A stretch of 63,996 nucleotides of DNA, the filler included, from Sphacelaria rigidula (taxonomy: Eukaryota), in NCBI GenBank assembly GCA_964200075.2. It is 4 parts of 4 records of this genome, joined end to end, with 100 filler letters (N's around TTAATTAATTAA, not from the genome) between each part and the next. Parts side by side here need not be neighbours in the genome. Positions count along the whole stretch, not along the records: positions 32,286 to 48,325 come from CAXNAA020001509.1; 3 more parts are not named here. One strand, given 5' to 3'. The position numbers and the translations under genes are program-made. How positions within the stretch are numbered: the stretch's first letter is position 1; every line of letters starts with the position of its first letter. This document shows, one piece after another, positions 12,585-48,052 of this stretch. The notes beneath the pieces are model-generated. The model did not search any database and had not been told where the DNA came from. It worked only from the letters and a program-made list of their open reading frames with translations.

Positions 12585-12589
12585 AAATA

Positions 12590-22104: not shown

Positions 22105-22445
22105 CTGAGGTGATAGGGCGACAGAACGCAGCGTGAACAATATGGGAAGGTGAGCAATGCAACGTTTTTTCATCGAGAGAACTTCGTAGGCTTGGACTCG
22201 CGCTGCGATTGCCAGGCATAGAATAACAAGCACTACAGAAGGAAGGTGGGGTACTAAATTCAAATCATGAGACAGCTCCTGTGTTGACTCTCCTCCTGTA
22301 TGACCCAGGCTGGTGCACCCACATGCACATGGGGTACCGAAAGGTGTGAACCAACCGGCGCCCAAAATAGATGGGACACACACACGCACACACATTCACA
22401 CATACACATACACAGGCGGTCTCGCAACGCCTGCATGGACTTCAC

Positions 22446-22996: not shown

Positions 22997-23993
22997 CTGG
23001 GGGCGGAGTGCAACCGGGAGCAGACGGTTGCGGGAGGAAAATCAAGACAGGGGGATTCGACGTCGCGACAATGTCGACAGAATGTTGAGACGCGACCCGC
23101 TACCTAAGCGGGAAGATTACCGTCACCCGCTTTATAACAACAGTTCCACTGGATTACACGGACTAGTGGGCAAACCATCCAGACGAGACCCAAGATTTGA
23201 AGAGAACATATTCGGCGTGAAGTGACAAGTGTGCCAGGTGGTTCCTGCAGAGAAACATCGACTCCCGACAGATTATGGATAGTCATGCGTAGGATTTCTG
23301 ATTCGGAAATTTTCCTCGCGGCCCCGCAGAGAAATAGGTATACAATTGTATCGCGCTACTTCTGCACATTATCCATCTCACATCGTGCAAATCGCGGAGT
23401 GGGTGCCCTCCACCACTACTTCCGGTACTTGAACTCATTCAGCATGGAAAAACGACCAACCGCAGGGTCAAGAACATGAACGTGGTTATCACACGGGAGT
23501 TCTTCCAAGGGGGATATTTGCTGCGGCCCACGGTAAGGCCGCATGTTGTCGACACCCAAACAACTGGGAAAACGGGAAGCGTACGAAAACATGTTAATTG
23601 GTCCCCGCGCGAGCGTAAACCTGCTGCTTTTGGACGCCTGTTCCCGTTTCCGCTTTTTCGGGGAGGATCTCACTGAGGCACAGCCTGATGATCTCACTAA
23701 TCGTACTACACAGTACTGGGACAGCGATCGTGTGTGTCAACCGCAGACATTCAGCTGCCAGTAAAAACCGCAGGCTCTCTATGTCGCGTGGCTACCTTGA
23801 CATCCTACTTCAACTTGATTGTACTTCGCAGAGACGGTGCTCGTGACAGATTGTGTTATTCGCAACCAAATTTCAACATACGCTGTTACATCCGACATAC
23901 GCCATTACATTAGAATGCTGCCTCGAAAGCGTGATCAGGTGTGACAGCTAAGAGTACCAATGGTAGTGGCACAATGCATCCAGTCCACTGTAC

Positions 23994-24189
23994 CTGACTT
24001 GTCATTGCGACCTCCGCTCGAGTTGGACCGCGACGAGGATGATCCGCCACGGTTGTTCGTCCCCGTAGACCCCGACTGGGAGGTCGCAGTGCTGGCGGAC
24101 CCCGAAGGTCGTCCGTACGCGCCGTGCTGCGCGTAGCCACCGTCGGTCGGCGTAACAGAAGTGGATGGAGCGGGGGCGGGAGTAGACGC
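23994..24189 (-). CDS. CCCH/prion-like gene exon 3
   Basis: tgcag|ASTPAPAP...RNDKS G|gtacag; phases 0 and 1 fit the neighbours. Confidence 0.8.
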
Positions 24190-24660
24190 CTGCACATGCG
24201 AAATGAGAATTAATTAGAACGCGCAAGTGTGCACAGGCGGGTGGTAACATGTTTCACAGGTCAGCACGTACACGGGCCGATGTGTGGCTAGCGGTTCCAG
24301 GGAGTAAATACTCAACAGATGGGGTTTGGTTTCATTCGCGTCCACTCCCTCTCTCCTTCGTTGTTCTTCAGGCAGATCTGATTGTCTTCTCCATCTATGT
24401 CCAATTTTCCTCCCTCTGCGCGTTTCACGAGTGTTTCAATTGTTCACGTCAGACACGTCCGTGTCTTCACCGCTGGATTTGCAGCGGATTCATGTGTAAG
24501 GGGAGGTCATCACTAAAGCACAATGTGATGAGATCGCAGAGGGGTGGCTGCGGGAGAACCCACTAGTTTTCATGGGTCAATCTCCTGGACGTCAGGGTCG
24601 CGTTCTCAAAGGATCGCAACGCGTACGGCAGCTCACTGCAATCATCAAGTTATAGCAGTC

Positions 24661-24823
24661 CCTTTTACGAGGGGTCATCCTAGAGCATTCCTGCTCCAAC
24701 AATTGGTCACCCGAGAGCATTCCTGCTTCAACAAGTGGTCACCCGAGAGCGTTCCTGCTTTTACAAGGGGTCACCCGAGAGCGTTCCTGCTTTTACAAGG
24801 GGTCACCCAAGAGCATTCCTGCT
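24661..24823. repeat. Intronic minisatellite, ~32-bp unit x5
   Basis: cttttacaaggggtcacccgagagcgttcctg repeated. Confidence 0.9.
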
Positions 24824-24960
24824 CGGGTGGTCGGGAGAGTTGCTGCGATTACACCACGCCCGCACAAGACAAGAAACGGTCACTACATCAGCACATCTCG
24901 CACTTGCATATCTGTGTACAATCGAATGGGAGGGAATATTTCACATGTGTTATGTTTTAC

Positions 24961-27035
24961 CTGCTGCCCCGCACGCTGCGACACCGACGGGGCCTGTGAC
25001 GACGGCTGCTGCGGCTGCTGTTGCGGCTGCTGCTGCCCATACACCCCATACCCCGGTGCCGCCGCATACCCACCGGGGGGAGCGCCGTATGCACCCGCAC
25101 CGGGGGCACTTCCAGCACCGTTAGGAGGAGTCGCGCCATATCCCGCAAGAGTGGTGGAGGTGGGCGCCGCACCGTACGCTGACGGTTGCTGCTGCTGCTG
25201 TTGACCTGGCTGTGCGGCTGACCCTGCGCCGTACGGCGAAGGCGTTACAGATGCTGGGGTCCCATACGGTGAAGGAGCTGCCGCCGGTGTAGATGGGGTT
25301 CCGTACGCTGAAGGGGTCCCCGCAGGTGTCGCCGAAGTCCCATATCCCGGGGTCGTCGGGGTGGTGGAAGACTGTGCCGGGGTGCCGTAGGGACTGGGAG
25401 CCGCCGCAGAGGCGCCGTAAGCCGTCTGGCCCACACCGCCCCCTGGGGTAGCAGGGTTGCCGTAGGCTCCAGCATCCTGCCCCGGTGTCTGGGCCGTCTG
25501 CGCGGTACCATGAGTAGGAGTTGAAGCCGGGGTCGTGCCAGTTGTACCACCAGCCGTCGCGCCATAAATGTCGGTGCGGCCGTACGCGGAGGCAGAGTTG
25601 TCGTACGGGGAGGCAGCGGGGGCCGGGGCGGGAGTACCGGGGGCTGTCACTCCGCTCGATCCTGAGGCCGTCGCTGCGGGGCGACTGCTGTTGCTGCTAC
25701 CCGTGGTGCCGTAGCCGCCAGCAGGAGTGGCGGTTGCGCTGCCGTAGGCGCTCTGCTGCTGGTGCGGCTGCGCGCTACCATATCCACCAGGGTTTGTTGC
25801 TCCCGCCGGCTGCAGTGAGTTGCTGCTAATCCCGCCCCCCCTTTGCTGCTGCTGAGATTGCTGCTGTTGGGAGCCGTTGCTGTTCATGCCACCGGTAGCA
25901 CCACTGCGGGCAGCGCCAGCGGAGGTCGTCGCCACCGCAGATTCTGTTGCCCCGGTGGTGCCAGTCGAACCGGTCCTGGCGTCCACCGTTCCCCCTCCCG
26001 CTCCCGCTGCCGCCGTCGCGGCCGCGGTTGAACCGGGCGCAGCCGTCGGAGCGGCGACGGGAGCGGGAACCGACCACTTATATTGACCTGTCGTCGGATC
26101 GTACACCCATCCACCAGCACTTGCAGTGGTGGTGGTGGTAGTGGCGGCGGCGGCGGCGGAAACCGCTGTCGATGCTGTCGTCTCCGCTGCCGCGGCCGAC
26201 GGTTGCTGCTGTTGTTGCTGCTGCTGTTGCTGAGGAGTCGACGTGCCATACCCCGATTGAGAGGCGGGAGCACCGTAGCCGCTCTGGGTAGCGGGTGTTA
26301 CAGTCCCACTTCCCGGCGCTGCAGCAGCGGGGGTTCCGGCTGCCGCAGACGGCACACCGTATCCCACCTGAGATCCAGCCGTGTAATATCCTTGCTGTTG
26401 AGCAGGTGTACCTGCGCCATTAGCGGCGGCAGGAGTCGCTCCGTATGCGGAGGACGTACCAGATGCGACGGCAGATCCTGTCGTGCCAGCTGCCGGTTGC
26501 TGCTGCGGCTGCCCGGTAGGGTTGACCAACGCAGCGTTGCCACCATAAGCAGGGTTGCCGTATGAATTGGCGTTGTACCCAACATGCTGTTGCTGAGGAG
26601 TAGTTGAAGAACCCGGTCCGGTCGGGGTCGCCGTAGCCCCAGTTGCCGACGGAGCACCGTAAGGGTTGGAAGGATTCACGCCGAGAAGCTGCTGCGGCTG
26701 TTGCTGCTGTTGAGGAGGTTGTCCATAAGGTTGGTGGATCTGTTGTTGCTGTTGTTGGTGAGGAAGCTGCTGGTGCCCGGGTACACCACCGGGCTGCTGG
26801 TGTTGCTGCTGGGGTTGAGACTGGTGAGGGGTGTACGGGGAGGGAGTTTGCTGTTGTGCCCCACCTCTGGAAGATTGTCCATGCTGCGGTTGCTGCTGTG
26901 AGTGCGTAGGAGGGGGGGTAGAGTGAGAAGCACCTCCACTTCCTCGCTTGGAGGGGGTGCCGGGTCCTCCGCCGTAGTTCGAGCCTGTGCTGCTCCGACC
27001 CATTGACCGGGGACCGCCGCGACCCCTCTGCGGTT
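24961..27035 (-). CDS. CCCH/prion-like gene exon 2 (2075 nt; Q, A/T and [S/A/P]YG-rich)
   Basis: Contains the 706-aa ORF; aagcag|AA acceptor is in phase with exon 1; CAG|gtaaaa donor. Confidence 0.9.
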
Positions 27036-28637
27036 CTGCTTATTCCGGGAGGGAGAGCGGCATTCGGTAGAGAGTTGGTTAAACATCTTGATCGCATCAG
27101 ACATTTGTTGTTACACACGCATAATTTTCGATCTGAAAATTGATACATATCCTGGCTGAAAATCGCATGTGACGCAAGGTGAGCAGCAATTTGGGCCTGC
27201 GGCCGATTAAAGTTACCGGAGGAGGAATCAGGATATGACGCTGTCTACCGTGCAATTTTTTTTCATGTAGCTGGACAGACCATTTTTCGCTCAAAAAATA
27301 CAGACGCCCTCCGTGTGCAAGTCGTGTTTTGTCAGCTTTGTTGGAGATGGCTTTGTTCGAAGGAGGGTTTTGTTTGGAGAGGATCCAGAACACTTCCACT
27401 CAAATGGAAACAGTCTCAATACATCATGCAACCACGTCTGACGAGAGACAGCTGGGTTTGTTGCGACTATTGACACTTCTTAGTTTGATCTCGCAGGGAG
27501 AGGCTCTATTTCTCCGAATGTTGTTGAGTTTTCGATCCCGCACATACAGACAGCGATCTGATGTCGAGTCTCACCTCCGGCGCATTTTGGACTGTAAATC
27601 GGTTACTACACTGAAGCTGCTTACCGTGCCGTACACTGGATAAAACCACACCGAGCTACAGGTGTACAGAATCGTGGGAACGACAGATGAGCCCACACCC
27701 AGCGCCCAACGTCAAACCCGCATGCCTCACTGCAGGCCGTGTCCAAGGGTTGCATGTTGCACAGAAAAAAAGGACAACAGGCTCCTGTGTCGAGGCTGTT
27801 GTGGGTGGCAGGTGACAGCCGCCGAATCTTCCCCTCTTTTGAGACATACGTAGTGGCGATATTGAATGTTCATCATGCGTTGAAACACCGTAGCGCGGCG
27901 AGGAGGGGAACGTACAGCCCCTCATGCAGCGTCATCTGCCCTTTGGCTAACTTGAAGAGCATATACCGTCGGCCGACTCTGGCATCATTATTCTGAGATG
28001 TCTCAACAGCTGCTGTACAGCCCGTGACGACGGGGTGTTTGAGGCTCAATTGTCCGTACACAACAGAGGGAGATGTGAGAACAGAGTTGGGATCACTCGC
28101 TTCTTCATTGTCGTCTGTAAAAAAGCCGTCGGCAGGGCAGCGAGGTACGGGATCGGCAGAGGACATCACATACATGAACACCCCCCAAAAAACAGTCGAG
28201 TGATCAAGAGTTGCCCCCCCCCGACTAGTCTCGCCACACCAGTACCACCAGTACCAACCCCATCATCATCGACTCGATGAACATCGAGAGCAGATATCTT
28301 GTGTGATTGGCTCACACCAACACAGATCTCGTCTCCTGTCCCAGGTACTACACAGAGCCAATCAATGATTATCACCACCTGTCCCGATTTGTCCCCAGCC
28401 GATATTCTCGTTGTTCCAAAGAAAGCCCACGGGCCATACGTACCCGCGAGGCAAAACAAAATAACGTATCGACATCAAATGTATGTTGTCGTCCTTTCCG
28501 ATTAATGTGCCCTGATCTTACCCATGGTAGCCTTGCGTGTGCGAAAGCGATTCCTTCGCGCATATCAAGCACACGATTGGCAAAGCGGTGGATAGGTGTT
28601 CTAGAGTTTTTGCGGCCCTTCCATTAATTTTACTCAC

Positions 28638-28833
28638 CACCATACATGCCGCCCCCGCCCCCGCCGCCCCCGCCTCCGCCCATCTCAGGCCGGGCGCGCT
28701 TCATGTCATTAGCACCAGGGCCAGGATAGCCACCACCACCTCCTGCACCACCGCCTCCGGCAGGGCCGTAGTGGGAGCTGTTGTTGTCTAGAGGCCGCTT
28801 GTGGTGCATTCCTCTGTCCCCATTGTAGGCCAT
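28638..28833 (-). CDS. CCCH/prion-like gene exon 1 (start codon; Gly-rich, basic NLS-like patches)
   Basis: MAYNGDRGMHHKRP...MKRARPEMGGG...YG G|gtgagt consensus donor. Confidence 0.85.
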
Positions 28834-30407
28834 GTCTGGTAACTGGACCTCCGGATCTACAGGGTCCCTGAAATCCGCAGAGATGGAAATAAGATTTCCC
28901 CTGTTCGCCTTCGAAGAGAAAAATAAAGACTGTGATTACAGGGGCGCGATGCTGGCTTGTTTTGTGAGAAGGTGGCTTCCAAAAGGGGATCCGTTCCAGT
29001 CTTCTGGTAGATTTCGTTGCTCTGAAACAAACCCGATGTCGTCTGCTCCGTTATGTGGCACAATGAATCGATGTCGTAGTGTCTCTTCGGAGTGCCACGT
29101 CTCAAAACACTACTTATGATCTATAGGTCATAATCTTTCGGGTATGCTTCGGTTCTTGTTCCAGATCGCAAGGGAGTTTCGTTACCTATTCTACTACAGT
29201 ATATACACCTCTTATATGAAATATGTATTTTTGATCATTTCAAAACATCTGACCTATTATTTGGTATATACATATTTTCCTGCGTCGTCTCAACTACTAT
29301 CGATGCACTGCGACCGTCCATATTGATGTCACTTATTGTAACTATGTACTAGTTATGGGTTAGTTGATCGCGAGTCTGAAACAACATACCTATACGCAAG
29401 CAAAAGATATTTCCGTACTGCGATGGCTCCGATCTGGCCTCCCCTTCCTTCGAAGTGCTGCTTGAGGGATTGCCGAGTAGCACACCCGCTGTCGGCCATG
29501 GTTTTGAGCGATATTCTACGCACAGGTACAGCTTTTCACGCAATCTATCATGGTCTTGTGATGAACGTATCGCCATGCGCATGCACTCAATGGTAGTTGC
29601 GGTGCAGCTGTACTTGTGTTCAGTTTCGGGAAGTAGCAACGGAGTTCAACACCCGATCATAAATACGTTCAACAGCCGCATGTTGAGGCGAAAACTGAGG
29701 CGGCCACTTTCGTTCACGAAAATATATACCTTATGAAGTGTCCTCTAGATTTGTTTTTAGAGGGGGAGGGGGGAGGGAGTGTCGGAGATGCAGATGCTTG
29801 CTTGTCAGGACGATCTAGGTTGGACAGCTCATCCACGGACAGGGGGTTAGGGGGTGTTGTACCCCGTCATCTACGATGGACGTTTGGTTCGTTTTCAGGA
29901 GGCGCTGGTGATTGAAAGCTGCAGTAGATGCCAAAGGCAGTGAGGTGCTTCGCTGTATCGAAAATTGGTGGAAGAAGATCTTTGGGCGCTCAAACGGCAG
30001 CAAATGGCTCAATTTCAAGTTTTTGGGACCATGTTGTGAACCTGGTTCGTTCTGCTTTTGGCACGTGACAATGAAGACCCGGACAAACTGAGATCCACAA
30101 TAAATGCATGTGTGGTAAACTCGACACGGTCCGTTCCTCCGGAAAAGTGTATCCTTGCTACTCATCGTAGGCAATAATCTCAGGCTACATGCATGCCGAG
30201 TTGCTACTGGCATCATGAATTTGGGCGATTCACAAAAAGGGGTACGCGAACCCCCCTACTTTGGTCCAAAATGATATATAATGGATCTGGGTCTGGGTAA
30301 GCCTATGCTACCGTCCATGCTAGTGAGCTTATAATAACCCTTTGCGTCCAACGTTCGGAATGTGGATATGATGCCTATTATCTCCCGATCCCAAAAATAA
30401 GGATCAA

Positions 30408-30630
30408 TTGTTGACTGCTGGGATGAGCGGTGACACGCGGGAAAAAAAAAAAGAAAAAAAAAAAGTGCTGACGACGATTTTTTTTTCTAATTGTATTTTC
30501 GAGCTGGGAAGTTTTGTTTTCTTCTTTTTCTTTTNNNNNNNNNNTAAATATTTAACTGCTGGGATGAGAGGTGACAAGAGGAAAAAAAAAAAAAGAAAAA
30601 AAAAAAGTGCTGACGACGATTTTTTTGTCC
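30408..30630. repeat. Direct repeat pair (~80 bp) either side of a small N gap
   Basis: actgctgggatgag.ggtgaca..(A)n gtgctgacgacgattttttt occurs twice. Confidence 0.75.
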
Positions 30631-32185
30631 AATGGTAGTCTCGCGCTGGGAAGGTGCGCCACCCACGGTGCTGTTTGTTCCTCTGGACCACTTCACTCCA
30701 AAAGTAGAAACTGGTGCGAGAATGCATATTTTGATCCCTGCAACGTTTTTCGCGTCAGGAGACGGCCGGGAAAAAATATATAATGCCACCTCAGAATGAC
30801 AATGTACGAGTAGCTCCCGTGGATCCCGGCGCACATTGGCGATTTTGAACCGCGACTTTGTCTCTGCATTTCTGTGATTTGGAAAGGTTTGTACAATTTT
30901 CCGGGTGAAGAGTTGCCCAGAATCACGCTGAGGGCACCAGAATTACTTGAAACTTCGACCGCTAGGGTACGTCAACCGGTTCCTTCATCCATTTTTCAGG
31001 GGGAAATGATGGAATGATCACTACTCAACACATCCTACCCACCCTGGCAATCGAAGGGTCAACTGTGCAGCAATACTCTCTCGGGTAGAGGAGCAAATCA
31101 TTCCAAGGTGGCATTGTCTGCCCGCCCGCCTTTCCACGCCGAAAACGCTGCCTAAGGGTCAATATCTGCACTTTTAACCAGCGTGTATCTTCGATCCAGT
31201 ATATAGTTTGTGTTTGTGTCATCATCCGATCTACTCTGGACACATGTCTACACCTTTCGGTGTATGTGTGGGCGCATCAGCCGAGGTCACACAGGAAGAG
31301 GGTCAACACAGGAGATTTTTTATTATTTTTTGGTCCTTCATTACTTCACCTTCCTTCTGCGGTGCTCGCTCTTCTTTTCATCGCGAGAACGTTTCAGCAG
31401 TCCCCTACTCTCATCCACCGTGAGGTCGAATTTTGTGTACCCACGACAAGGTCGCTCTCCACTGTAGAGTGTGATGTGAGGGGAAATCCCAGATCATGGG
31501 ATTTCACCGAAATTCAAATCCACGTCCCAGCCGTCAAAAGGTTTCGAGGTTTTACCAACCGACGGGGGCAACCGGCGACAATAGTGGCAAGAGCATAAGG
31601 CGTATTCTTTTAGCGTACTTTCGTTCGGCGACAGGCTCCAGCGGCAAACACAATCTAATCGGTGCGGTGCAGTATATTGCTCGTCATATTTACAGAAGCG
31701 GAGACATATGGACAGCACATGGAATTTCTACGGTATGTCGTACAAACGCATACCGACCATCGGGATGATCTTTCAGCACGAAAGTCAGGGGTGGACTGGG
31801 AAGGTGAAACTGAGCACATGTACTCAAACTCGCAGAAAAATGCCTGTGGTCCCGCGGCAGGACCGATCGCTCAGACCCGCAGGCGACCATTTGTCCGTTT
31901 CGATTTCCGTTGTCACGAATGCCCCGTCTGACTTCCGTTTCATTGGTGAAGAAGGCTGTTGTTTTTGAAAACGAAGTCTTAACGCACGCTGAGTATGGAC
32001 AACAAGAGGTACTGACACATAGCACATGGACAATGACGGATAGTAGACAGACAAAAAGGCTACTTTCCCCCCACGTGTAGCAGGGAGGAAGATTGTCCCG
32101 CCCATGCAACACATCGACCAAACACCGGTCGCCCCGGTGGCTCAGTTGATAACCTCGTAATCTTCTGATGGTTGAGTAGGGGGGT

Positions 32186-32285: not shown

Positions 32286-32424
32286 CGTGAGACTGCACGC
32301 GTTGAGCACCGACATTGTGGAAAGAGTGTTGTGTCTATCTAAAAAAACGCCAACGAATGCAATAAAAGGATCGAAAATCAAATCGGACACCTTTAAGGGT
32401 TCGTATAAACATAACGGACTTTAC

Positions 32425-34610
32425 TTATGGGGCAGAGGAAGTATATGCTTCACCACTATATAGTCAAGAGCGGAATGCTCTATCTCGTTGTTGCATTTTC
32501 TAGTCCATGTCCATTGCGCCTCAGGCTTTTGTGCTCTATCGTTCAGCGTCTTCATCTCGTTATGCTCGAAGAACTTCAGCATTTCTACCCCGTTCGTGTC
32601 ATTCTTACCTTCCCCGTATTGCCCAATGATACCATCCGGTTGACCTCCTCTTCCTACCCTTGCATCAAAACCTCCCACTAACATTACTTATCCTTGCCTC
32701 TTATACCTATGTACATCTGCCGCTATCTCTCCAAACCTCCGTTATATATCGTTCACACTACTCTTCGTTTGTGAGGGCATGTAGGTGTTACCTACGAAGA
32801 AGTCCTTCGTTGCCCGCTCTCCTGGTACCCTTAGCCATATGCTCTCGTCGAATTTCGTGTCGTCGATCACTCTAAACTGTCACACAGGTATTACTTGACT
32901 AAGAATCCTACCCCCCCGCGCTCCCCTGCTATTGGACTTCTGTCCCTTCCGCTTCTTCCCTATCCATACGTACTCTTCGACATTGCATCCTATTTTCGCC
33001 CTGTCTGTCTCCCATGACTCTTGTATTCCTACTACATCCAGGTCGTGTTTACTCACTCGTTGCGCTATCTCTTCTCCCTTGCGCTTGTCTGTGACGAACC
33101 CATACACGTTCCACGATCCTATTCTCAGCTTCCTTTCCGAATCATTATCTGCTCTCGTGTTGTCTCCTATTCTCTCTCCGTCGCTTTTGTTTCTACTTTC
33201 CCTTGCTTGGTTGTTCTTCCCGTTTCTGCGTTGGTCTTTGTCTATTTGCTTCGGGTCGCTGTGTCCCCTCCTCTTCCCCTTCCGGGCACTTACCTGTTCC
33301 TGCCTCTCTCCCCCTCCGTTCACCCGTGAACTACATCGTAGGTTTGCTGTTCCATTAGCTATGCATACTCTCCACCCTACTCTTCTACCCTATGCCGGCA
33401 CTTTACTTGTCGCTATCCTTTCCCACCCATTGCTCGCGCCGTTTTTCAGCGTGACTCGGGAGAGTTTTCCCTCCTTTTCTACTTTTCCTGTTGCCGAACA
33501 TTATGGTCAAACTCCATCACATTTCCTTTCAAACTCTATTCTTATCACATCGCTACGAACTCCGAATACCGGCACTACTAGTACTTTACCCGTCCACTCT
33601 TTATTTCTCCATAAGCCCTTCCTTACGGTCTCTCTCTCGACCTCTTTCGCGAGAATCTCCAGCTCGTTCGTTTCAATTGTATTGGTGAGATGTAGTCAGC
33701 GTACCGGGACATCCCAATCCTAGCTCTTGTTCGGGGTCTGGTGCCTTTCGGCTCTTTTGCTGGCGCACCGACACTGAATGATGCCTCCAACACCGGCTCG
33801 TAGCCTGAAGCCAAGTTCAACACCTTTGATACAAGTACCCCACGTTTGTGTCAGGCGATCTTCATGGTAACCATCCAGGCTTCCCACGATCGTATTTTCT
33901 ATCTTCTTGCCCCGTTGCTGTACTGGTTACTTTCTTCCAGGGAGGTCATTTTCACCGTGTAAGATTCAAGGACGGCTTCCATAACACGAGGCTTTACTCA
34001 CATCGGGATGTCCCGTACATAACGTATTTCCACTCCGTGTACGGTTCACCATGGGTCACTACTACACTCATGCTTCCGAGTAGACCTTCGCTGCTGGAAG
34101 CTGGGCCAACCATTCCCCCATACGTTCTACCAGCTTCTATCCTTCAAGATCGCAAGAAGTCTACGTACCGCTTGGTTCCCCTTCTCGTAGGTCATGTGGT
34201 CGGTCATCAGTAAGGTGTTTGTTTAACGAGTGCAGTAGGTCTTGACGTTCATGTCATGCATTGTTCACCCCGTCCCTTCATTGGGCGCCTTTTGCACCTA
34301 ATGTCGAAAATTTCTGGAAATGACTGGCCAGACTTCCCCCGCTCAATGGAAAACGGTTTTACGGGTATCTCACCATCAGACCCCAACCTCCATGTGAATT
34401 TGACATGGAGGAGGGGATGGCCCTACCCTATCCGTACTGGTTGTATATTCTGTAATTTCGACATGCAAGGTGGTCAACCTTCACGCTATTACTTATATGT
34501 CTAGGGTTTGGTTCTACTCTCATATTACGTTTGTTATGATATGGGGGGCAAGAATCTCAGTCGTTCCCCGACTTCATATGGGAAAGTACATCTGTTATTT
34601 TCTCGCTATT
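32425..34610 (-). mobile_element. Decayed LINE copy B: 5' UTR plus endonuclease region
   Basis: Carries the motifs RIGSWNVYGF...DVVGIQESW and GGFDARVG; colinear with the reverse complement of ~58980-61130. Confidence 0.88.
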
Positions 34611-36053
34611 CCGCGTTCATGTTCGGGCTGTGGTATGGTAGGTTAAATAAAAGGAGGGTTAGCTTCTCTACTCCATGTCTATGCCCGGCCTGTATTATGG
34701 TAGGTTATGTAAAAAGGAGGGTTAGCCTCCTTATTTCATGTCTATATCCGGGGGCCATGATCTAGTAGGTTGAAGAAAAAGGAGGGTTAACGTTCTTATT
34801 TCATATCTATGTCCGGGCTGCCTTTTGGTAGCTGATATAAAATGGGGGGCTAGCTTCTTCATTTCATGTCTTTGTCCGGGTTGTATTATGGTAGGATGAA
34901 GAAAAGGGAGGGCCAGCTTCTTTATTTCATGTCTGTGTCCGGGCTGTTTTTGATAGGTGAAAAAAATGAAGGTTAGCTTCCTCATTTCATGTCTATGTCC
35001 GGGCTGTGTTATGGTATGCTAAATATAAAGGAGGGTTAGCTTCCTTACTTCCATGTCTATGTCCGCGCTGTGTTATGGTAGGATAACGAAAAAAGAGGAT
35101 CGGCTTCTTTATTCCATGTCTGTGTCCGGGCTGTGTTATCGTAGGCGAGAGAAAAAGGAGGGTTAGCTTCCTCATTTCATGTCTATGTCCGGGCTGTGTT
35201 ATGGTATGCTAAATATAAAGAAGGGTTAGCTTCCTTACTTCCATGTCTATGTCCGCGCTGTGTTATGGTAGGATAAAGAAAAAAGAGGGTCGGCTTCTTT
35301 ATTCCATGTCTGTGTCCGGGCTGTGTTATCGTAGGCGAGAGAAAAAGGAGGGTTAGCTTCCTCATTTCATGTCTATGTCCGGGCTGTGTTATGGTATGCT
35401 AAATATAAAGGAGGGTTAGCTTCCTCATTTCATATCTATGTCCGGGCTGTTTTATGCTAGATGAAAGAAAAGGATGGTTAGCTCCAATATACCATGTCTA
35501 TGTCCGGGCTGTGTTACGGTAGGTGAAATAAAAGGGGGGGTTGGCCTCTCTATTTCCATAGCTGTGTATGGGCTGGCTTATGGTATGTTGAATAAAAAGC
35601 GGGGTTAGCCTCTTTATTTTCATATCTATGTCCGGGCTGTGTTATGGTAGGTGAAATAAAAAGGAGGATCAGCTTCTTCATTCCATCTCTATGTTCGGGC
35701 TGTGTTATGGTAGGTGAAATAAAAAAGGGGTTAGCTTTTTCATTTCATGTCTTATGTCTGGGCTGTGTTATGGTATGTTAAATAAAAAGGGGGTTAGCCT
35801 CTTCATTTTCATATTTGTGTCCGGGCTGTGTTATGGTAGGTGAAAGAAAAAGGGGGGTTAGGCTTTTCACTTCCATATCTGTATCCGGGCTGTGTTATGG
35901 TGGGTGAAAAAAAAAGGGAGGTAAGCCTCTTCATTTTCATATCTGTGTCCGGGCTGTGTTATCGGATGTGAAAGAAAAGGATGGTTAGCTCGTCTACGCC
36001 GTGTCTATGTCCGGGCTGTGTTATGGTATGTGAGATAAAAAGGGGTGTTAGCC
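34607..36053. repeat. Tandem array of ~63-bp monomers (~23 copies) with a local 190-bp trimer higher-order repeat
   Basis: Unit ttcatgtctatgtccgggctgtgttatggtaggtgaaataaaaaggagggttagcttc; anchors at 34997, 35061, 35124, 35187, 35251, 35314 and 35377. Confidence 0.95.
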
Positions 36054-39000
36054 CAGGGGGCAGCGAAAAAAAAACTTCAGGACACGTAGGCCCCAAGATC
36101 GAAAAGTCGAGTTTTTGAGGGAAGGGGGGGACACCCAGCCGTGTGTCCCCTGTTTTTTTGCCGAAGCGTTGGCGGATGCGGGTTAGCTGCCGTAGGCAGT
36201 AGAGATCCTTATATATATTTTATATCATGTACATGTATTATATGTAATATATGATATATTATATATGATATATATATTATATCATATATTATATTCCATA
36301 TATTACATTTAGTATACTTTATTTCGTACATTATATATCATATAATATAGACCTATATTATAGGTCTACATTATACAAATAAATGCTTCTTCTTAATATA
36401 TACTATATTATACATTGTAAACAATATGGAAGGGATAAGCCTCTTCTAGGTTTTACAAGGCGTTGGTCTCTTCTTCAGCAGTTTGGTGCGGAGTACACAC
36501 CGGGTTGTGTCGTGTGGGCGAGCCAGCTGGGCTGAATGTCCTACCGTCGACGCCACTATGAAAGGAATAAGCCCCTTATAGGTTCTACAAGGCGTTGGTC
36601 TCTTCTTCAGCAGTTTGGTGCGGATTGCACACCGGGTTGTGTCGTGTGGGCGAGCCAGCTGGGCTGAATTTGCACAGCAAAGATACCCCGCGTTTATCCG
36701 AGGAATGTTCCCTCCGAGATATTCCTCCGAGGAATCCCGGGAACGGTTCTGACTCTATCTGTGTAACCGCGGCCAGGACAACGGTTCTGGACGGCCATCT
36801 GACGTCACTTTACCGGTCAATCTATAGTGACATTTACAACAATATATGTACATGTATCATTTCACTTTTCACCACTTTTGCCGAGTTTTCTCTGGCGACA
36901 AGGCATTGTTTCCCGCGCTTTCTTTTGCAGTGCACTGAGAAGGCTTAGTGGTACATTACCGTTCAGGTTTGGGTTTCATCTGATTCCTGTGGCGCGTGTT
37001 CTGGCCACCGAAAGTCGCTCAAACTTGCTCTTTTTCACGAGGTGTCGATCCCGAACCACAAAAGCTCTTCCAAGATGATGGAAAACTTGAAACAGGAACC
37101 CGAACCAAAAAAGCCTGTGGAAAATGATGAAGCATACTTACTTGTGGCGGGGTATTTTTACCCCGTGTTTCCCTTTGTCGCGTTCTCGTTCATTCGGGAG
37201 CACGAACACACCGGTTATGCCGCCAATGTCACGAGAACATGAGAGCAAAGCAGTCGAAAACAATTGAACATTGCCTTGGCCTTAGCCAGCAGCAAACACG
37301 AGACCGTGCAATGGGTCGTTGGTAAGTTGAACAAGGCACAGCAGTATGGCAGCACAGGTCTATTTTGCCGCAAAAGACAATCACCCGTTGTAAAAAAGGG
37401 TCCGATGATGTGGAAGCTACAGACAGTGATGGGCAATCGTTTCAGACAAGAACCACAACTCTGCGGAATATATGGCTAGGTAGGTAGGTAGCTAGGCGAC
37501 GTTATCTGGCAACACATAGACTGTACTAATTGTTTTCGATTCCAGACCGTACAGTTCAGTAAGCCTGCAACCATAAGATTGGAAGGCTCGGGGGGTTCTA
37601 CCCTATTCATCTTTGAAACAAGATCGTGCAGTACAATAATTCCGCAAGCATGAGTTTGGAGGGCTCAGAGGTTTCCCCCCGAACACAAGAATAATTACAC
37701 GCACGTGCACTAACAACTACCGCACTCGAGCGGAATATATGTCTAGCTAGCTAGCTAGCTAGGCGACATTATCGCGCAACACCACAAACTCCAATCTGGA
37801 CGTCTATATCAGTGCCTTAGATGGACTTTCAAGCTTTCGATAAAAAAACGAAATTCGTGAAACGGTAGATGGTCACTCGTGTACAGTAGTACAGGCAGCC
37901 TGTACTGTCTGCAAGCAGGGTGTCTTGAGTGCGTGCTTCGTGCATGAGGATACAAAGGAGAAGCGGGTAACGTGCAGTGCAGACAGCCTCGGACTATCGG
38001 TTCTCTCTGCTAACAATACGACGTGCCAGGGACGTCGGCAACGTGCAGCTTTGTACTGCCTGCACTGTCCATGAGCGTGCACGCAACTCGGTTGCCCACC
38101 GTACCACGCAGTTCCGTCGCCGATCCCTGCTACCATGAGAGAAGATGCGCAAGTTTTCGCCAACAAAAAATAAGCAAAGCACACCCGACTACTGCAGCAG
38201 TGTATCTCTCCCTGTGCTTAACTCGTGCTCTATGCTGCAGGGTTGTGATAGTAGCTGAGAACGAGTTGGATGTAAAATGCGTGGTGCTGTGCACAGGCGT
38301 TATCTTGCGTAGTGGTCTGTCAGACAGGAGTCAAGTGCCGCTTCGTGCCTATGCAGATGTTCATATCTTTTCGACTGAGTAATTCTTCTCCGCGCGCCGC
38401 CAATTATAATTTTGGGTTCAAGCCTTCTAGGGACAAAAATACGGTGGACCTATCAGATCGGCCAAAAACAAATTTCGACGGCACTTTTCCGAAACGGTAC
38501 ATGGTCAGTCGTGTACAGTACAAACAGTCTGTACTGTCTGCAAGCAGGGTGTCTTGAGTGCGTGTTTTGTGCAGGAGGATATAACGTAGAAGCGGGTCAC
38601 TGGCGGGGGTCGGCAATCACAGAGTTTTGCGCACAATATTTTGTTCAGCGGCTAATCTCGAAACCTCTGAGCCAAGAGAATCTGAAAAGCAGACCAGGCT
38701 CTTCTCTGTGGGATGATGCAAAGTGTCCGAGACGTGTGTTGGCAGTTTTCCCTGTTTGGGGGTCAACAGTTGGGTCAAACGTCCCAAAAGTGAACAATCC
38801 GTGGGCCAAAAATATCTTTGCTATAACATCCGGCCTGAGAAAAGTCGTTTTGGTCGGTTTCCAAAGATTTTTCAGAACGCGAACTTATTAGGAGTATCTG
38901 AAACTCGGTTCCCGGTATCCTGGTTTGTTTTGTCAAGTACAATAGAGCAATGGCGATTCATCAGATGATGAGACCCTTTGACCGCTAGGTCAGGTCCTCC

Positions 39001-39440
39001 TATGAATCGTGATCACTTTCACTTAAAAAATGGTACACCTCAGAACCAGCGAATTAACCAGAATACCGGGAGTGGAGTTTGAGATACCTCTATCATTTGA
39101 CCCACTGTTTGACTCCCAGACAGGGAAAAAAGCCAGCACACGTGTTACGTCTTGGACCCTTTGCATCGCCCTACAGAGAGGAGCCTAGCCCACTTTCAGA
39201 TTCGCTCGGTTCCAAGGGCTGAACAATAATCCGTGTGCAATAAAAATAAAATATATGGCGATCTCCACAGATTATTGGGCAAACGACCATATGTTGGCGA
39301 CCACAGATTATTGGACACGAATTATTGTTCAGCGGCCAATCTCGAAACCTCGCAGCCAAGCGAACCTGAAAAGTAGGCTAGGCTCCTCTCCGCGGGGTGG
39401 TGCAAGGTGTCCGAGACGTGTGTTGGCGATTTTCACTTTT

Positions 39441-39901
39441 ATGGCAACGAATCCCGATTTTTACGAATAGGAGAGTTTCAGCCCGTCTACAGGCGATTTC
39501 TCCCGTGAATTGATTTTTCGGACCCCAGTCCGTTGGACAATGTTCTTCGGCTAGCGGTGAGCAAACCAGATCAATTCTCCGATTTACGTTGACTTTCGAT
39601 ACATCACCGTTCTGCTGAAATCGGGACACTCCCGCATCTCCCCCGCATCTCCCCCGACTTTTTTTTTAATCCCCCGACTTTTTTTTTAATCGGGGGAGAT
39701 GCGGGAGTGTCCCGATTTGGGCAGAAATGTGATAAACCAAACGTCAACGTCCATATAATCGGAGAATTGATCTGGTTTGCTCACAGCTAGCCGAAAAACA
39801 TCGCCCAACGGACTGGGGTCCGAAAGATCAATCCACGGGAGAAAATCACCTGTAGATGGGCTGAAATCCTCATCTTTGTAAAAATCATGATCCGTTGCCA
39901 T
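39441..39901. repeat. Foldback/MITE-like inverted repeat (~200-bp arms, short loop)
   Basis: atggcaacg...aaatcgggacactcccgcatctccccc pairs with gggggagatgcgggagtgtcccgattt...cgttgccat. Confidence 0.9.
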
Positions 39902-41739
39902 TTTTCATTTTAAAAGTATCTGGAAAAATCCCCAGACAGCGGGATTTTTCCAGATATCACTAGGAAAAGCCATCGATTCCCAGATACTTTTCTGTTCTCT
40001 GTCTGGGAATTGACGTTCCATCACACACTCGTCGCACACCGCACCCACAATGGTACAGTCAGTGTCACACTCCTGCCCTACAAGTTTAGTACAGTCAGTG
40101 CAAAAGTAGCTGTGCACGTTGCATGTACAGTACCGTGGCAACAGCATAGCTGCTGCAGCACTCCGCATGAATTCTCTTCATGACCGTAGGATCAGGAATA
40201 GACGGTGCAATACACTACAGTGCTTTTTCGCTGGCAGGGTTACTATTATAAAATAACACGATGTCGCCCCTGCTGGCTGTGTTGGCTGCTCGTATCGTTT
40301 CGTGCTCGTCGTGCCCGCCACCGATGACGAAGTCTGTAGTATTCTGTGTACTGAGACTGTTGCTACCACACTACCAACTTTCACGTGAGTTTGTTGTGCG
40401 CGGTATGGCACAAATCGTCTGCTGCACACACTGCACCGCTTGCGACACTGCCACCGTACCAAGCGGCGATCGGCTGTAGTAAGGGTTGGTACGCCTGTCA
40501 TTAAGAGATCCCTATCATACCAGTAGCTACTGTGTGTGTGCGTGCGTGTGTGTATGTGTATGTGTGTGCGTGTGTGTTACCATCCCATCTATCCCGTACC
40601 TCGACGGGATTATTTACGTGTTAGTGTACCGCGGGTGAGACAAGCACAAAATGCACATGATGACCACTATATATACCGCCGTCTGCACGCAGGCTAGATG
40701 ATGGCCTCGGATGTACAAATCCCCGGGAGTTTTCATAGACAGTAAGGTGAAGTTTTGAAAACCGATATCACAGGAAAAAGTCTCGGAGAAAAGTCATTTC
40801 GGACGACTTTTCTTAGACGCAGTCTATAACAAGCGGCCTCACACGAAGCATCATTTCTCAATGACGTCTGACCAGATTTGCGCAAGGTCACGCACAACGT
40901 GCACGGCTGATGAGCAGCTACGCATATGCCACACATGTCGAAATTATTGCTGCCCAACAATTGTACAATCTTCCATGCGTGTTACTTAGTTAGGTTGGTC
41001 AACCTTATCCGGAGCCACCATCCGATAAGACATGCGATGTTTGGTACAGCCACGATACTACTACTACAACAGCCTCTCTTAACCATATATTTTCGACTTG
41101 CGTCATCCCCGGGAGGCCCGTACCACCCTCCCGAAGGGGAACCTTGTATTTTTACGTGCATGTATCATTTCGCATTTTCAATCACTTTTGCCGAGTGTTC
41201 TCTGGCTGCAAGGCATCTTTGCCCGCGCTTTCTTTTGCAGTGCACGAAGGAGGGTCAGCGGTACATTACAGTTCAGGTTTGAGTATCATCTGGTACCTGT
41301 GGCGCGTGTTCTTGCCTTCGAAAGTCGCCCACACTGGCTCTTTTTCGCGAGTTGTCGATCCCGAACCACAATAGCCTCCTCAAGATCGTCGAAAACTTCA
41401 AACAAGAGCCACAAAAGCCTGCTCATGGCGGGGTATTTTTTCACCGTGATTTTATTTGCGTTCTTGATGATTTGGGAACACGAGGACAGTGGTTATGCAG
41501 CGAATGTCACGAGAACATGAGAGGAAATCAGTTGAAGACAGCCGGACATTGCCTTGACTTAGTCAGCAGCAAACACAAGTCGGTGATCTGAGATCCCTTA
41601 TCCTTTAGTTTTGACGTGAGGCCTCTGACACGGTCATATCTGCGTAATATGTGCCCCAATTATGCAAACGTTACAATCCACTAAAAAGCATCGTGGAGAA
41701 TACTGAAGAATGTGTAGATTGTTACTAGAGGAAGGGGTC

Positions 41740-42278
41740 ACAGTCACAGCTGCAGCAGGGGAAGTCGCTGATTGCCTGGTGTGCATTGATACGGTGGATA
41801 CCCACGGTGCGTGGCATTTTGTTGTTTCAACACCCTGCTGTCTGATGACGGCTAGGTAGAGTGGGTACAGGGATAGTTGATCACGCAGGCTGCGACGGAT
41901 CCTGCCGGCCTCATCATCAATCTTCGCCCAGTTATGGACGAACGATCGAAGAAACCCAGCAAATAAGCATCGTCTATGGTCCGCTACATATGTGAGGGTT
42001 GGGAGCTGAACATTTTCGCTTAAAAAATCTCGACAGTGGAAGATTGAGCTCCTGTCGCGCGACCAGTGGGTAGTGCTGCAAACCTTTGCCGGCGTACCTG
42101 GCACTGGGGGCGACATCCCGGTACAGACAGTCCCAACACTACCGGGACGGCCGTGCACAGGCCGGCAGCCGGAATGGCCGTTGCACTGGTGTTCTTCTAG
42201 CGTTATCAACTTAGAGTACGGCCGCACAGGCTTTGCACGCGAAGATTTCGGTGACTGCCTCACTTCCACTTCGGCCAT
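41740..42278 (-). CDS. Possible exon/ORF of unknown function inside the TIR element
   Basis: Part of a 214-aa ATG-initiated ORF with protein-like composition; no family recognised. Confidence 0.3.
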
Positions 42279-43600
42279 GTGCTGTGGATTATTTGATTAT
42301 TTCACGATCGCACCGCCTGATATGTACAGTATGGAAATGTATTACACCCTAGACAAGAGCTTTCTACAGTCAGTATACAATTTAAAAACATGTACTGTGC
42401 ACAGTATAAAAGCTATTGCCTTCTGCGACGTGCACAATACTCGTACAAAAAAGGGAACTGCGCGCAGTATGACTTCAAGACAGTGTAGAAATCGCCTGGC
42501 GGTATGAATTGGTACGGCCGGCTTGTGCGCTATAGCGGCTGTATTGCCATCCGCTCAAGATACAGGCAGAAATTATTACGGCAGAGGCGGCCTATTACTC
42601 TTGCGTGCACCACCTAGGGCAAATGCACACTTAGCTGCAACACCGACCGCTGTACTAGATGTGGTGAAGCGAGGGGTGGTACACCGCGTACACACAGACA
42701 TCAAGCAATATCATACATGTATACTGTGCACAAGTGTGATTCGAAATCCGTGCGTGCGGGGTCGGGCCGACATTTAGAGATCTCTGCACAAGTTCGCCGT
42801 GTACTACCGGGACACGACCTTACTTCAGTAGCGATCACTTGCGATGTGTGCTGCGACGGGTCTCGTGCGTGATAGTGTTTTTTCTATCGTTTTTCCACCT
42901 CCGCACACCTCTTGTGAAGCGTGCTCTTCATGGTGGAAGTGTTCACCGCTCTTTCCGCCACTCTTGGTCTGAGACATTCGAAACTGCGAAATGTGACAGT
43001 ACGAGTATCTACTGGAAGGTACATATTCTCCCACACAATCGCCTCCATAATATGAAAGAGGAATAACACTGGTATATTTTCGACTTGCGTCACCCCCGGG
43101 AGGCCAGTATCAACCCCCCGAAGGGGGACCTTGTAATGTATATATGATACTTATATTAGAAATATATATGTAAAGGAGCAGAAGCAAATATACACCCTGC
43201 GAAGCCCGCCCAAATTTTCGGATTTTGTCAATGTTCATTGATCAATTTCTTGAAACAAAGTTAACAGAAAATATATGAAAAAATCAGGATAATTTTAATT
43301 GTCGAAAAAATGCCCTCCTGCGTCTGACGTCATCGGGACAGAACGGGCAAGGAGCAGAAGCAGATATACGTACCTCACGAACCCCGCCAGACTTTTCGGT
43401 TTTTGTCAGCGTTTATTGATCAACTTCTTGTGAAAAAATTAACAGAAAAATCAGAAGAATGTTTATTGATCAATTCCTTGCGACAAACTTGACAAAAACA
43501 AATCGAAAAAACCATGACGAGTTTCGAAAAATTGCTCTCCGAGAGGGGAGGGCGGGGGGGGTGGGACTACGTGTCCGAAAGTTTCCTCAGCGCTGCCCTG

Positions 43601-43715
43601 GTTAGCCTCTTCATTTTCATATATTCGTGTCCGGGCTGTGTTATGGTGGGTGAAAGAAAAAGGGGAGTTCGCCTCTTCATTTTAATATCTGTGTCGGGGC
43701 TGTGTTATGGCAGGT
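43601..43715. repeat. Continuation of the 63-bp monomer array (~2 units)
   Basis: gtgtccgggctgtgttatggtgggtgaaagaaaaagggg units. Confidence 0.9.
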
Positions 43716-43733
43716 TTCCAGGAAAGGTTATAT

Positions 43734-44100
43734 TGTGGAGGATATCTCTTTGCAGTGACATATTAGAGACTGATGCCACACATGTATGCAGACCCAGCGC
43801 AAGCAGGGACAAGGTAGGAACGTTCCGGAAGGACCAGATCACCGAGGATCCTGTAATGCCGACGTAACTAGACAACTCGGGGGGATGCTAGGAAGAGCCT
43901 AATGTAGGACGGTGCAACATCTCGTGAGGAACTGGTCGCCCACGGCGAGCGCTCTCCTAGTCTGATCCCACTTCTTGCCTACATATACAAGAGGAAATCA
44001 TCGCCAGCCTCGGAGTTCCTTCGGCATCAGGACGGCAGTCTCCCCCCCGTAGGCCTCTGACTACTCTAGCGATACGCCTTCCTCACACTGGCGACACCAG
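43734..44100 (+). mobile_element. Putative 5' LTR (43734-44087) and primer-binding site (44089-44100)
   Basis: TGTGGAGG...CCTCACA inverted termini, then c-TGGCGACACCAG, which is complementary to a tRNA 3' end with CCA. It lies directly upstream of pol relics. Confidence 0.7.
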
Positions 44101-47969: not shown

Positions 47970-48052
47970 ACCCCGGTGGTCAAACTGATACAACAGCCCC
48001 AAAACACACAGGTCATGAGTTCGAATCCCGGCATGACCACTTTTTTTTTTTT
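47970..48052 (+). other. tRNA-derived (SINE-head-like) sequence with A/B boxes and a T-run
   Basis: ccccggtggtcaaactg...ggtcatgagttcgaatcccggc...T-run. A related B-box lies on the minus strand at ~9557-9580 and a related A-box start at 32131. Confidence 0.45.

Follow-up and report, generated by a model that had tools for sequence, protein, structure and literature searches.

Tandem 63-bp units at the 5′ end of a single-ORF LINE from a brown alga: a possible counterpart of the rodent L1 monomers

LINEs lose their 5′ ends on each round of copying, and their promoter must be located within the transcript. The answer of rodent L1 to this 5′ loss is a set of tandem promoter units, the activity of which is proven. 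In the brown alga Sphacelaria rigidula (assembly GCA_964200075.2), one LINE copy has a 5′ untranslated region (UTR) that runs into an array of 63-bp tandem units, which raises the question of whether the array is a heritable part of the element, an outgrowth of it at a single locus, or an older satellite into or beside which the element came to lie. We addressed this question in the window, namely the whole stretch of 63,996 nucleotides, in which N44-TTAATTAATTAA-N44 linkers divide the pieces 1–16044, 16145–32185, 32286–48325 and 48426–63996.

Three copies of the LINE are found in the window. Copy A, on the minus strand (12578–14205 and 15732–16044; blastn and tblastn), has a 1.5-kb insertion between its halves; as the contig stops short of its 5′ end, this copy is uninformative on the 63-bp units. 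Copy B, also on the minus strand, retains an ORF remnant at 32445–33692 (tblastn and blastn), which corresponds to residues 1–392 of the relative P0003 and comprises the N-terminal domain plus the greater part of the endonuclease; its homology ends at 32445, about 160 bp short of the contig edge at 32286. On the plus strand, copy C has an ORF remnant at 59885–63994 in several frames (tblastn, ORF list and weak RVT_1 matches), with the N-terminal domain, an AP-type endonuclease, a reverse transcriptase (RT) and a C-terminal Cys/His motif; it reaches the window end at P0003 residue 1353 of 1360. The 3′ ends of the LINE fall outside the window, copy C being at the window end, copy B stopping at 32445 and copy A at about 12578.

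P0003 is a single ORF of 1360 aa with 58%–65% identity, and it maps along copy C by tblastn. It matches RVT_1 with an E-value of 9.8e-31, and RVT_1 also matches two of the 11 copy C fragments (E 3.7e-5 and 0.0099), both under the curated cut-off. Exo_endo_phos was detected on P0003 residues 170–392 (E 3.4e-12), and tblastn aligned these residues to 60268–61626 of copy C and 33626–32445 of copy B; the decayed window fragments gave no direct Pfam match to an endonuclease domain, which is seen via the P0003 alignment. Against solved structures, P0003 matched L1 ORF2p and R2 best, with similar E-values (7e-21 to 6e-10), and an ESM Atlas lookup led to LINE-like clusters. Judged by these homologies, the element is an AP-endonuclease LINE, having both an RT domain and an endonuclease N-terminal to it. 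Ectocarpus sp. CCAP 1310/34 has relatives of the LINE protein with 42%–71% identity, at least five being named among the 120 matches listed. The tree of copies A, B and C is a star, with 85, 85 and 93 unique changes, respectively, over 1093 aligned columns, which sets an upper limit of 7.8% on the decay of copy B itself. As a separate observation, Pfam was run on 54 of the 124 ORFs in the window that are 110 aa or longer; apart from two weak matches, it detected only a SPA-domain exon, which was used in placing the host, and a CCCH zinc finger.

In copy B, coding homology begins at 33692 (tblastn, P0002 residues 1–140). Between it and the last unit lies a non-repeated 5′ UTR of about 0.9 kb (33693–34601, minus strand), referred to below as the tether. 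Upstream of the tether, 23 tandem 63-bp units, designated M01 (UTR side) to M23, occupy 34602–36053 on the minus strand, that is in LINE sense, as defined by Tandem Repeats Finder, phasing and nhmmer. The array continues on the same strand at 43608–43715 (phasing and nhmmer) with the full unit M24 (43608–43673) and the 42-bp partial unit M25 (43674–43715), and its far end falls mid-unit, at unit position 23. Copy B is the copy in which tandem units stand at the extreme 5′ end, in sense orientation, upstream of UTR and ORF. Tandem Repeats Finder reported 34619–36052 with a period of 63, 22.7 copies, 77% matches and a score of 1421, together with higher-order periods of 190 and 253. By repeat finding, phasing and a hidden Markov model (HMM), copy B has about 24.7 units in 1.55 kb, in agreement with the roughly 25 monomers of a preliminary description of the locus; the start of the feature, previously placed at 34430, has to be moved to 34602 (34619 by Tandem Repeats Finder), as 34430–34601 is non-repeated UTR. 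The unit HMM, made from 24 units and run over the window, gave 23 matches in 34604–36053, two in 43614–43716 and one at 58922–58983, whereas the remaining five matches in the window, with E-values of at least 2.3, were treated as noise. Each of the 26 significant matches belongs either to a LINE 5′ end or to the single array, and no LINE-free unit was found within the window.

The UTR had also been described as running without a break into the array. This is true of the UTR/unit junction, which is continuous, but the array itself is interrupted by a 7.5-kb element with terminal inverted repeats (TIRs) at 36054–43600 (no strand assigned), inserted at the start of unit M23. Its TIRs are imperfect (36058–36093 and 43563–43598; 36 nt, 78% complementary), and it is flanked by a 7-bp target duplication, GTTAGCC, at 36047–36053 and 43601–43607. 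The motif GGACACGTAGNCCC is present only at the two ends of the element, in inverted orientation; at least two matches occurred in none of 100 shuffles. Pfam found no transposase domain in the four interior ORFs searched (of 21 with at least 90 aa). Deleting the element together with one GTTAGCC gives back a continuous unit, which shows that the element inserted into the array. The idea that the units are subterminal repeats of the TIR element was rejected, as the units on both sides are direct and not inverted.

A second event within the array is a young higher-order repeat spanning M07–M13 (34979–35421, minus strand; pairwise matrix, nearest-neighbour distance 0–3%, period 190). The identities are 98% for M07/M10, 97% for M08/M11 and 100% for M09/M12, and M13 is identical to M07. 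A 190-bp block of three units has been recently duplicated here, locally and in place. Among units that are 97%–100% identical, the number of copies given by a draft assembly may not be reliable.

Copy C provides an independent view of the 5′ end. The linkers place it on another contig, as previously described, and nhmmer and global alignment agree with the earlier account that the same UTR is here preceded by exactly one monomer. This unit is at 58922–58984 on the plus strand (nhmmer E 1.2e-13; 77% identity to M01), followed by the non-repeated 5′ UTR at 58985–59884 (plus strand; blastn, tblastn and global B–C alignment). By blastn, 32445–34664 of copy B aligns to 61125–58922 of copy C with 81.4% identity over 2237 columns, continuously across the UTR/unit junction, and the UTRs are 85% identical. 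At the junction, M01 and the copy C unit both end in ATAGCGA, whereas most other units differ, e.g. ATAAAGA. The DNA upstream of the copy C unit is unrelated to the unit, and the upstream flanks of copies B and C are unrelated to each other. At an independent insertion with a different flank, one unit is joined to the UTR. Given that copies B and C, on different pieces, share the same unit–UTR junction, the 63-bp unit is part of the LINE 5′ terminus, in line with the previous proposal that the satellite is part of, or derived from, that terminus. The visible 5′ ends are two in number (24.7 units and one unit), with a multi-unit array at one locus.

The same junction bears on the explanation that the array length or the array–UTR join results from misassembly of repeats. 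The pieces do contain N10 scaffold gaps, one of which (30535–30544) lies between 88%-similar duplicates, and M07–M13 are nearly identical. Most units, however, differ by 11%–22% from their nearest relative and are thus easily assembled uniquely; moreover, the junction recurs independently in copy C, and a clean transposon insertion with its target duplication sits within the array. We consider an assembly artefact very improbable.

A more serious alternative is that a one-unit 5′ end was amplified in place at locus B, producing a LINE-seeded minisatellite with no role in the life cycle of the element. Local amplification does occur here, as seen in M07–M09, M10–M12 and M13; the window has a single array, and its higher-order periods are satellite-like. 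In addition, exactly one unit is present in copy C, the 5′ end of which falls no more than about 4 nt from the unit boundary set by the array/UTR junction. By arithmetic, random truncation gives this coincidence about 8%–14% of the time, and a one-unit founder fits better than random truncation. The divergence of the units argues in the opposite direction. Against their own consensus, 20 non-redundant units differ at 213 of 1252 positions (17%), about twice the 7.8% decay of copy B (binomial p 1e-26), a comparison that presumes the same neutral rate for the array as for the ORF, although tandem arrays may mutate faster. Had the array grown from one unit once integrated, pairwise divergence could have reached about 16% at most, whereas the mean pairwise identity of the units is 74%. 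In a simulated array derived from one unit with 8% decay, the nearest-neighbour distance was 9.4%, whereas it is 11%–22% for the units outside the higher-order repeat. Singleton changes account for only 46 of 1252 positions (3.7%), which is compatible with 4%–8% independent decay, roughly the age of copy B, while minor variants that are shared occupy 13.3% of positions and therefore point to several older unit types. The excess over 7.8% and the low share of singletons thus indicate that the units were diverse before the array of copy B began its independent decay. This diversity disfavours growth in place from one unit after insertion, and we regard the minisatellite explanation as somewhat unlikely.

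The divergence is not evenly spread along the unit. A 23-bp core (unit positions 24–46, CCTACCATAACACAGCCCGGACA in LINE sense) differs at 41 of 459 positions (8.9%), compared with 172 of 793 (21.7%) in the rest of the unit (chi-square p 1e-8, column-permutation p 0.007), which implies that the diversity predating integration spared the core. From this pattern the core looks to be under constraint, a feature that a neutral local array leaves unexplained. In the copy C unit, however, five of the 23 core positions differ. Every unit also carries a purine/pyrimidine self-complementary pair. RNA structure in the unit was considered and rejected, six unit-dimer and junction folds giving z from −1.2 to +0.55. 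Searches for HDV-like and hammerhead ribozymes in 33500–36100 and 58700–60000 yielded no Rfam match at E ≤1, and the whole window yielded none at gathering score. In prokaryote genomes, a 17-base unit core matched once at each of 18 loci, never in tandem; these matches were dismissed as chance, about 69 matches being expected arithmetically in 596 Gb on both strands.

Old diversity of the units would also fit a satellite that existed at the locus beforehand. According to this explanation, either the LINE inserted in or beside the array, by target preference or homology-guided 5′ joining, or copy B, lying downstream of the array, serves as a source copy: its transcripts begin in the last unit, and its progeny, like copy C, carry one transduced unit. 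The unit diversity, which predates copy B's own decay, fits both versions; the star tree of the three copies is consistent with B as source copy, and the beginning of copy C at a unit boundary is as expected from a start site opening the last unit. On the other hand, the other ~60 kb of the window is free of such units, and the array of copy B is in LINE orientation with the same UTR junction as copy C, for which an independent insertion would need homology-guided joining. At copy C, the upstream flank viewed is not repeat in which the copy could be embedded; satellite targeting is disfavoured because this copy has only one unit and then unrelated DNA upstream. An older satellite at the locus is accordingly unlikely. 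The preliminary description had offered three readings, namely a monomer promoter, a LINE-seeded satellite and a satellite-targeting LINE; the present evidence narrows them without settling the choice.

The explanation that we favour, and to which we give an even chance, is that this single-ORF LINE of a brown alga has a heritable, variable-copy monomer 5′ end like that of rodent L1. The 5′ end of the family would consist of n 63-bp units, a non-repeated UTR of about 0.9 kb and the ORF, which would be the rodent L1 layout of monomers, tether and ORF. Copy B would have come with, or sat from the start behind, an array of already-diverged units, the 23-bp core having presumably stayed constant while the units diversified. 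The single unit of copy C may stem from 5′ truncation inside an array or from an RNA start in the last unit. The phases differ, as the array of copy B ends at unit position 23 and copy C begins at position 1, so that a fixed start site per unit is not evident. After integration, decay would have affected the array of copy B as it did the remainder of the copy, a three-unit block would have been duplicated in place and the TIR transposon would have inserted. We infer that arrays pass on through RNA. Going by its conservation, the core is a candidate transcription-factor or initiation site, and extra units may buffer the promoter against 5′ truncation. We tentatively propose, as a possibility, that a stramenopile LINE unrelated to rodent L1 independently evolved a putative multi-unit promoter, in which up to about 25 units of 63 bp each present the 23-bp core as a binding or start site and unit number buffers 5′ truncation.

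Comparison with known systems places these units among several partial counterparts. Like satellites derived from transposable elements (TEs), as described in the available part of a review (PMC9659126), the array is a tandemly amplified TE piece with higher-order structure; unlike them, this 1.55-kb array is still attached to its LINE, with no free copies in the window. The LINE-derived satellites covered in that part of the review stem from ORF2 or the 3′ UTR, and none from the 5′ UTR (PMC9659126). Should local expansion be the right explanation after all, the locus would be a small instance in which the 5′ end of a LINE gave rise to a minisatellite. In Ectocarpus, LINEs have been classed as RTE-X, RTE and unknown (PMC12477816), and its single-ORF EN-RT LINEs resemble the present element in having a single EN-RT ORF and a length of about 5.5 kb. 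Of the 12 rows on the LINE subclass in the curated TE table of Ectocarpus, which concerns another species, none mentions 5′ unit arrays; a 'divergent 5′ end' is recorded in one row, and a non-autonomous family is said to occur on occasion in tandem ('can be present in tandem') (PMC12477816). A word-match full-text search of part of the literature, which is weak evidence, found no description of 5′ unit arrays in a non-mammalian LINE. For the annotation of brown-algal TEs, the favoured explanation would define a 5′ module and offer the 23-bp core as a regulatory candidate.

Among mammals, according to the accessible portions of the sources, L1 elements of rat and hyrax have two tandem copies of a 5′ UTR motif, those of horse, elephant and opossum have three, and those of mouse have many (PMC5381506). 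The motifs of horse, elephant, opossum and hyrax, of about 70–100 bp, are near the 63 bp found here (PMC5381506, PMC5872511), but they come in two or three copies only and belong to elements of the L1 clade. In mouse and rat L1, as in the algal LINE, the extreme 5′ end consists of tandem units, after which come a non-repeated stretch and the ORF (PMC5381506, PMC6454616 and PMC9022269, in the parts available), and unit number differs among copies (here n=2); mouse L1 copies vary in monomer number, as stated in the text available (PMC6454616). The algal element differs in unit size (63 bp, compared with about 200 bp in mouse and 650 bp in rat L1 in the accessible part of PMC5381506), in having up to about 25 units, in its tether of about 0.9 kb instead of about 250 bp, in its single ORF with no separate ORF1, and in its brown-algal host; moreover, promoter activity is proven for rodent L1, whereas for the algal units it is a putative function. 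Occurrence of this layout in a brown alga, in a different lineage of LINEs, would point to a convergent strategy. If this holds true, monomeric 5′ ends would be a general convergent answer to LINE truncation rather than a mammalian peculiarity.

Three decayed copies (A, B and C) of one LINE family lie in the window, whose four pieces of about 16 kb each (1-16044, 16145-32185, 32286-48325 and 48426-63996) are joined by linkers of the form N44-TTAATTAATTAA-N44. Copy B occupies 34601-32445 on the minus strand, and copy C begins at 58922 on the plus strand and continues to the end of the window; the two share 81.4% identity over 2237 columns and provide the two comparable 5′ ends in the window, where no 3′ end of the LINE is present. 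Copy A, also on the minus strand, is divided into 12578-14205 and 15732-16044, with its 5′ end past the contig edge. A 216-aa endonuclease fragment of copy C used as query retrieved three longer proteins of 58-65% identity. One of these relatives, P0003, is a single ORF of 1360 aa with Exo_endo_phos at residues 170-392 (Pfam E 3e-12), RVT_1 at residues 740-989 (Pfam E 1e-30) and, read by eye in the sequence, a Cys/His motif at the C-terminal end; among its solved-structure matches, L1 ORF2p and R2 proteins rank best. P0003 maps along copy C in several frames from 59951 (residue 1) to 63994 (residue 1353), and its residues 1-392 correspond to 33626-32445 in copy B. A second relative with a longer N-terminus, P0002, extends the coding homology to 59885 in copy C and 33692 in copy B. 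Pfam searches of 11 copy C fragments gave two RVT_1 matches, both sub-threshold, and nothing else. Five named relatives from Ectocarpus sp. CCAP 1310/34 (42-71% identity) are among the 120 matches listed; Ectocarpus LINEs are described as RTE-X, RTE, CRE or unknown, with single EN-RT ORFs and lengths of 4-5.9 kb (PMC12477816).

Both B and A are disrupted. Homology of copy B to A and C breaks off at 32445, which corresponds to residue 392 within the endonuclease, and about 160 bp unrelated to the LINE (32286-32444) remain before the contig edge, reflecting either an insertion or the breakpoint of a deletion. The 1.5-kb insertion dividing copy A (14206-15731) holds a long palindrome (14245-14522, self-pairing at 68%) and an inverted pair at 14244-14369 and 14794-14921. 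Adjoining the point where copy A breaks off (about 12578-12593) are two related 43-bp tandem arrays (11243-11433 and 12297-12524; region 11192-12524), which sit within direct repeats of about 245 bp and 90% identity (11192-11435 and 12247-12492), with an N10 gap between the arrays at 12220-12229. A further element, with repeats at its termini, may have inserted into copy A here.

At the 5′ side of copy B, Tandem Repeats Finder reported an array at 34619-36052 with a period of 63, 22.7 copies and 77% matches, along with periods of 190 and 253. With the unit phase set by the first base of copy C, the copy B array spans 34602-36053 with 23 units and continues past an insertion with a full unit (43608-43673) and, at its outer end, a partial one of 42 bp (43674-43715), making about 24.7 units in total and breaking off mid-unit at 43715. 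The preliminary description of a variable-copy 63-bp monomer array forming the LINE 5′ end at 34430-36053 proved real and accurate, except that the array starts at 34602 and is interrupted by 36054-43600. An HMM built from 24 units gave 23 matches in the array, two at 43614-43716 and one in copy C at 58922-58983 (E 1.2e-13); five further matches in the window all had E values of at least 2.3, and thus no unit lies elsewhere in the window.

Global alignment of B and C is unbroken, both copies running continuously from unit through UTR to ORF with identities of 77% in the unit, 85% in the non-repeated UTR and 82% in the ORF, which bears out the proposal that the unit is part of the LINE 5′ terminus. 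The unit adjoining the copy B UTR (M01, from which numbering runs outward to M25) and the copy C unit have the ending ATAGCGA in common, and most other units end differently, for example with ATAAAGA. Given the 63-bp period and a unit-UTR homology that stops at unit position 59-63, the repeated segment starts at most about 4 nt from the first base of copy C. On the simplest reading, the element would open with this 63-bp unit and carry it along. We give an even chance to a LINE family whose 5′ end is inherited as several units, as in rodent L1; the units would be followed by a tether of non-repeated sequence (about 0.9 kb) and then the ORF. Copy C, whose single unit is preceded by unrelated DNA, would have been truncated within the array or have started from the last unit. 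It is rather improbable that the array is an older satellite, which the LINE targets or from which it picked up one unit through upstream initiation.

The segment interrupting the array (36054-43600, 7.5 kb) is bounded by a 36-nt inverted pair at 36058-36093 and 43563-43598, 78% complementary. The sequence GGACACGTAGNCCC occurs at two sites only in the window, the ends of this pair in inverted orientation, and two matches arose in 0 of 100 shuffles. Furthermore, GTTAGCC flanks the segment on both sides (36047-36053 and 43601-43607), deletion of the segment plus one GTTAGCC regains a continuous unit, and the units on either side have the same orientation. Thus, the segment is a TIR transposon that entered an already existing array and duplicated 7 bp of target (8 bp with one mismatch); the restored unit and common orientation led us to reject it as part of the repeat system. 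It has 21 interior ORFs of 90 aa or longer; four were searched against Pfam, and no family was matched. The element is crowded with nested inverted repeats, such as those at 39441-39901 and 39147-39419, and contains direct repeats of 77% identity (36845-37308 and 41153-41585); it probably represents a non-autonomous DNA transposon of composite structure.

Over the 1093 columns common to the three LINE copies, A, B and C carry 85, 85 and 93 unique changes, and 15 columns differ in all three. These counts indicate a star tree in which each copy has decayed by about 8%, and the decay of copy B since integration would be at most 7.8%. In twenty units, leaving out the partial unit, the copy C unit and the young duplicates M10-M13, 213 of 1252 positions (17.0%) depart from the consensus of these units (binomial p 1e-26 against 7.8%); pairwise identity across M01-M24 averages 74%. 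Of the 1252 positions, 46 (3.7%) carry a change private to a single unit, and 13.3% carry minor variants present in several units. When 20 units were simulated to decay independently from a single ancestor, singletons amounted to 3.4-5.2% at 8% decay and 2.1-3.7% at 4%; the median nearest-neighbour distance was 9.4% at 8% decay, against 11-22% observed for non-duplicated units. These comparisons suggest that independent decay of the units has lasted about as long as that of copy B itself, and that the units were already unlike each other when it began. Such prior diversity argues against growth of the array in place from a one-unit founder after integration, an explanation we regard as possible but on the unlikely side, and this argument fails if the mutation rate of arrays is about double that of the ORF remnant.

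The diversity is unevenly distributed along the unit. Positions 24-46, CCTACCATAACACAGCCCGGACA in LINE sense, are off consensus at 41 of 459 positions (8.9%), compared with 172 of 793 (21.7%) outside this core (chi-square p 1e-8; column permutation over any 23-column window, p 0.007). Since the core stands at the level of post-integration decay, the older diversity spared these 23 bp, as expected if the units had diversified with the core under selection. In the small sample of the copy C core, 5 of 23 positions differ, above expectation. A 17-base unit core gave 18 single matches in prokaryote genomes, taken as chance.

M07-M09, M10-M12 and M13 are 97-100% identical, reflecting recent in-place duplication of a 190-bp block; the locus is therefore also minisatellite-like. 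Unit identity by lag is 72-77%, rising to 79% at lag 3 owing to this block, with no further distance effect. Folding of six unit dimers or unit-UTR junctions gave z-scores of −1.2 to +0.55, and Rfam had no match in the array, either UTR or the rest of the window; a ribozyme or structured RNA in the unit is thus unsupported. Just past the array, an A-rich plus-strand region (44000-46520) with a weak, below-cut-off Integrase_p58_C match (46188-46520, E 0.0099) is probably a decayed LTR-retrotransposon fragment, which may have cut the array. Taken together, the array is old, diverse, core-conserved and later reshaped in place, and an assembly artefact is highly improbable.

Elsewhere in the window, a host exon with an SPA domain lies at 5500-5976 (Pfam E 6e-15). 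Its best named relatives are brown-algal, namely a record from Undaria and proteins of Ectocarpus and Ascophyllum, with 70-76% identity covering about 40% of the query; the DNA is eukaryotic, and its source is placed no more narrowly than a brown alga or close ochrophyte. An interstitial telomere-like run, (AACCCT)6.5 at 4013-4051, sits within a dispersed repeat that has further copies of 75-78% identity, one inverted at 2673-2819 and one at 49077-49226 on a different contig piece. A host gene on the minus strand (19404-27039), GC-rich at 56-62%, encodes very long Q/A/G/P/T-rich low-complexity stretches, among them a 718-aa open frame (24886-27039), together with a CCCH zinc finger (19404-20114; Pfam zf-CCCH, E 5.6e-5), and contains many TRF matches with 12-21-bp periods. 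Copies of about 100 bp, 88% similar (30411-30511 and 30552-30653), surround an N10 gap at 30535-30544 and look like scaffolding or gap-closing duplication, not biology.

Among known systems, the L1 5′ UTRs of mouse and rat consist of tandem monomers of about 200 bp and 650 bp, with a tether of about 250 bp to ORF1, and L1s of hyrax, horse, elephant and opossum have motifs of about 70-100 bp in two or three copies (PMC5381506). Perissodactyl L1 5′ UTR types with tandem repeats have gained and lost copies (PMC5872511); mouse copies differ in monomer number, and duplication has been proposed to keep promoters despite truncation (PMC6454616). In the available part of a review of TE-derived satellites, the LINE sources are ORF2 and the 3′ UTR, not the 5′ UTR (PMC9659126). 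The 12 LINE-subclass rows of an Ectocarpus TE annotation table do not note 5′ unit arrays (PMC12477816), and a word-matched search covering part of the literature found no report of them in a non-mammalian LINE. The window probably adds a LINE to those known to carry tandem 5′ units, from a distant host and another LINE lineage; its units may be functional and, on a comparison of two 5′ ends, may be a general trait. Its arrangement of monomers, tether and ORF is reminiscent of rodent L1, whereas the tether is about 0.9 kb here and about 250 bp in rodents.
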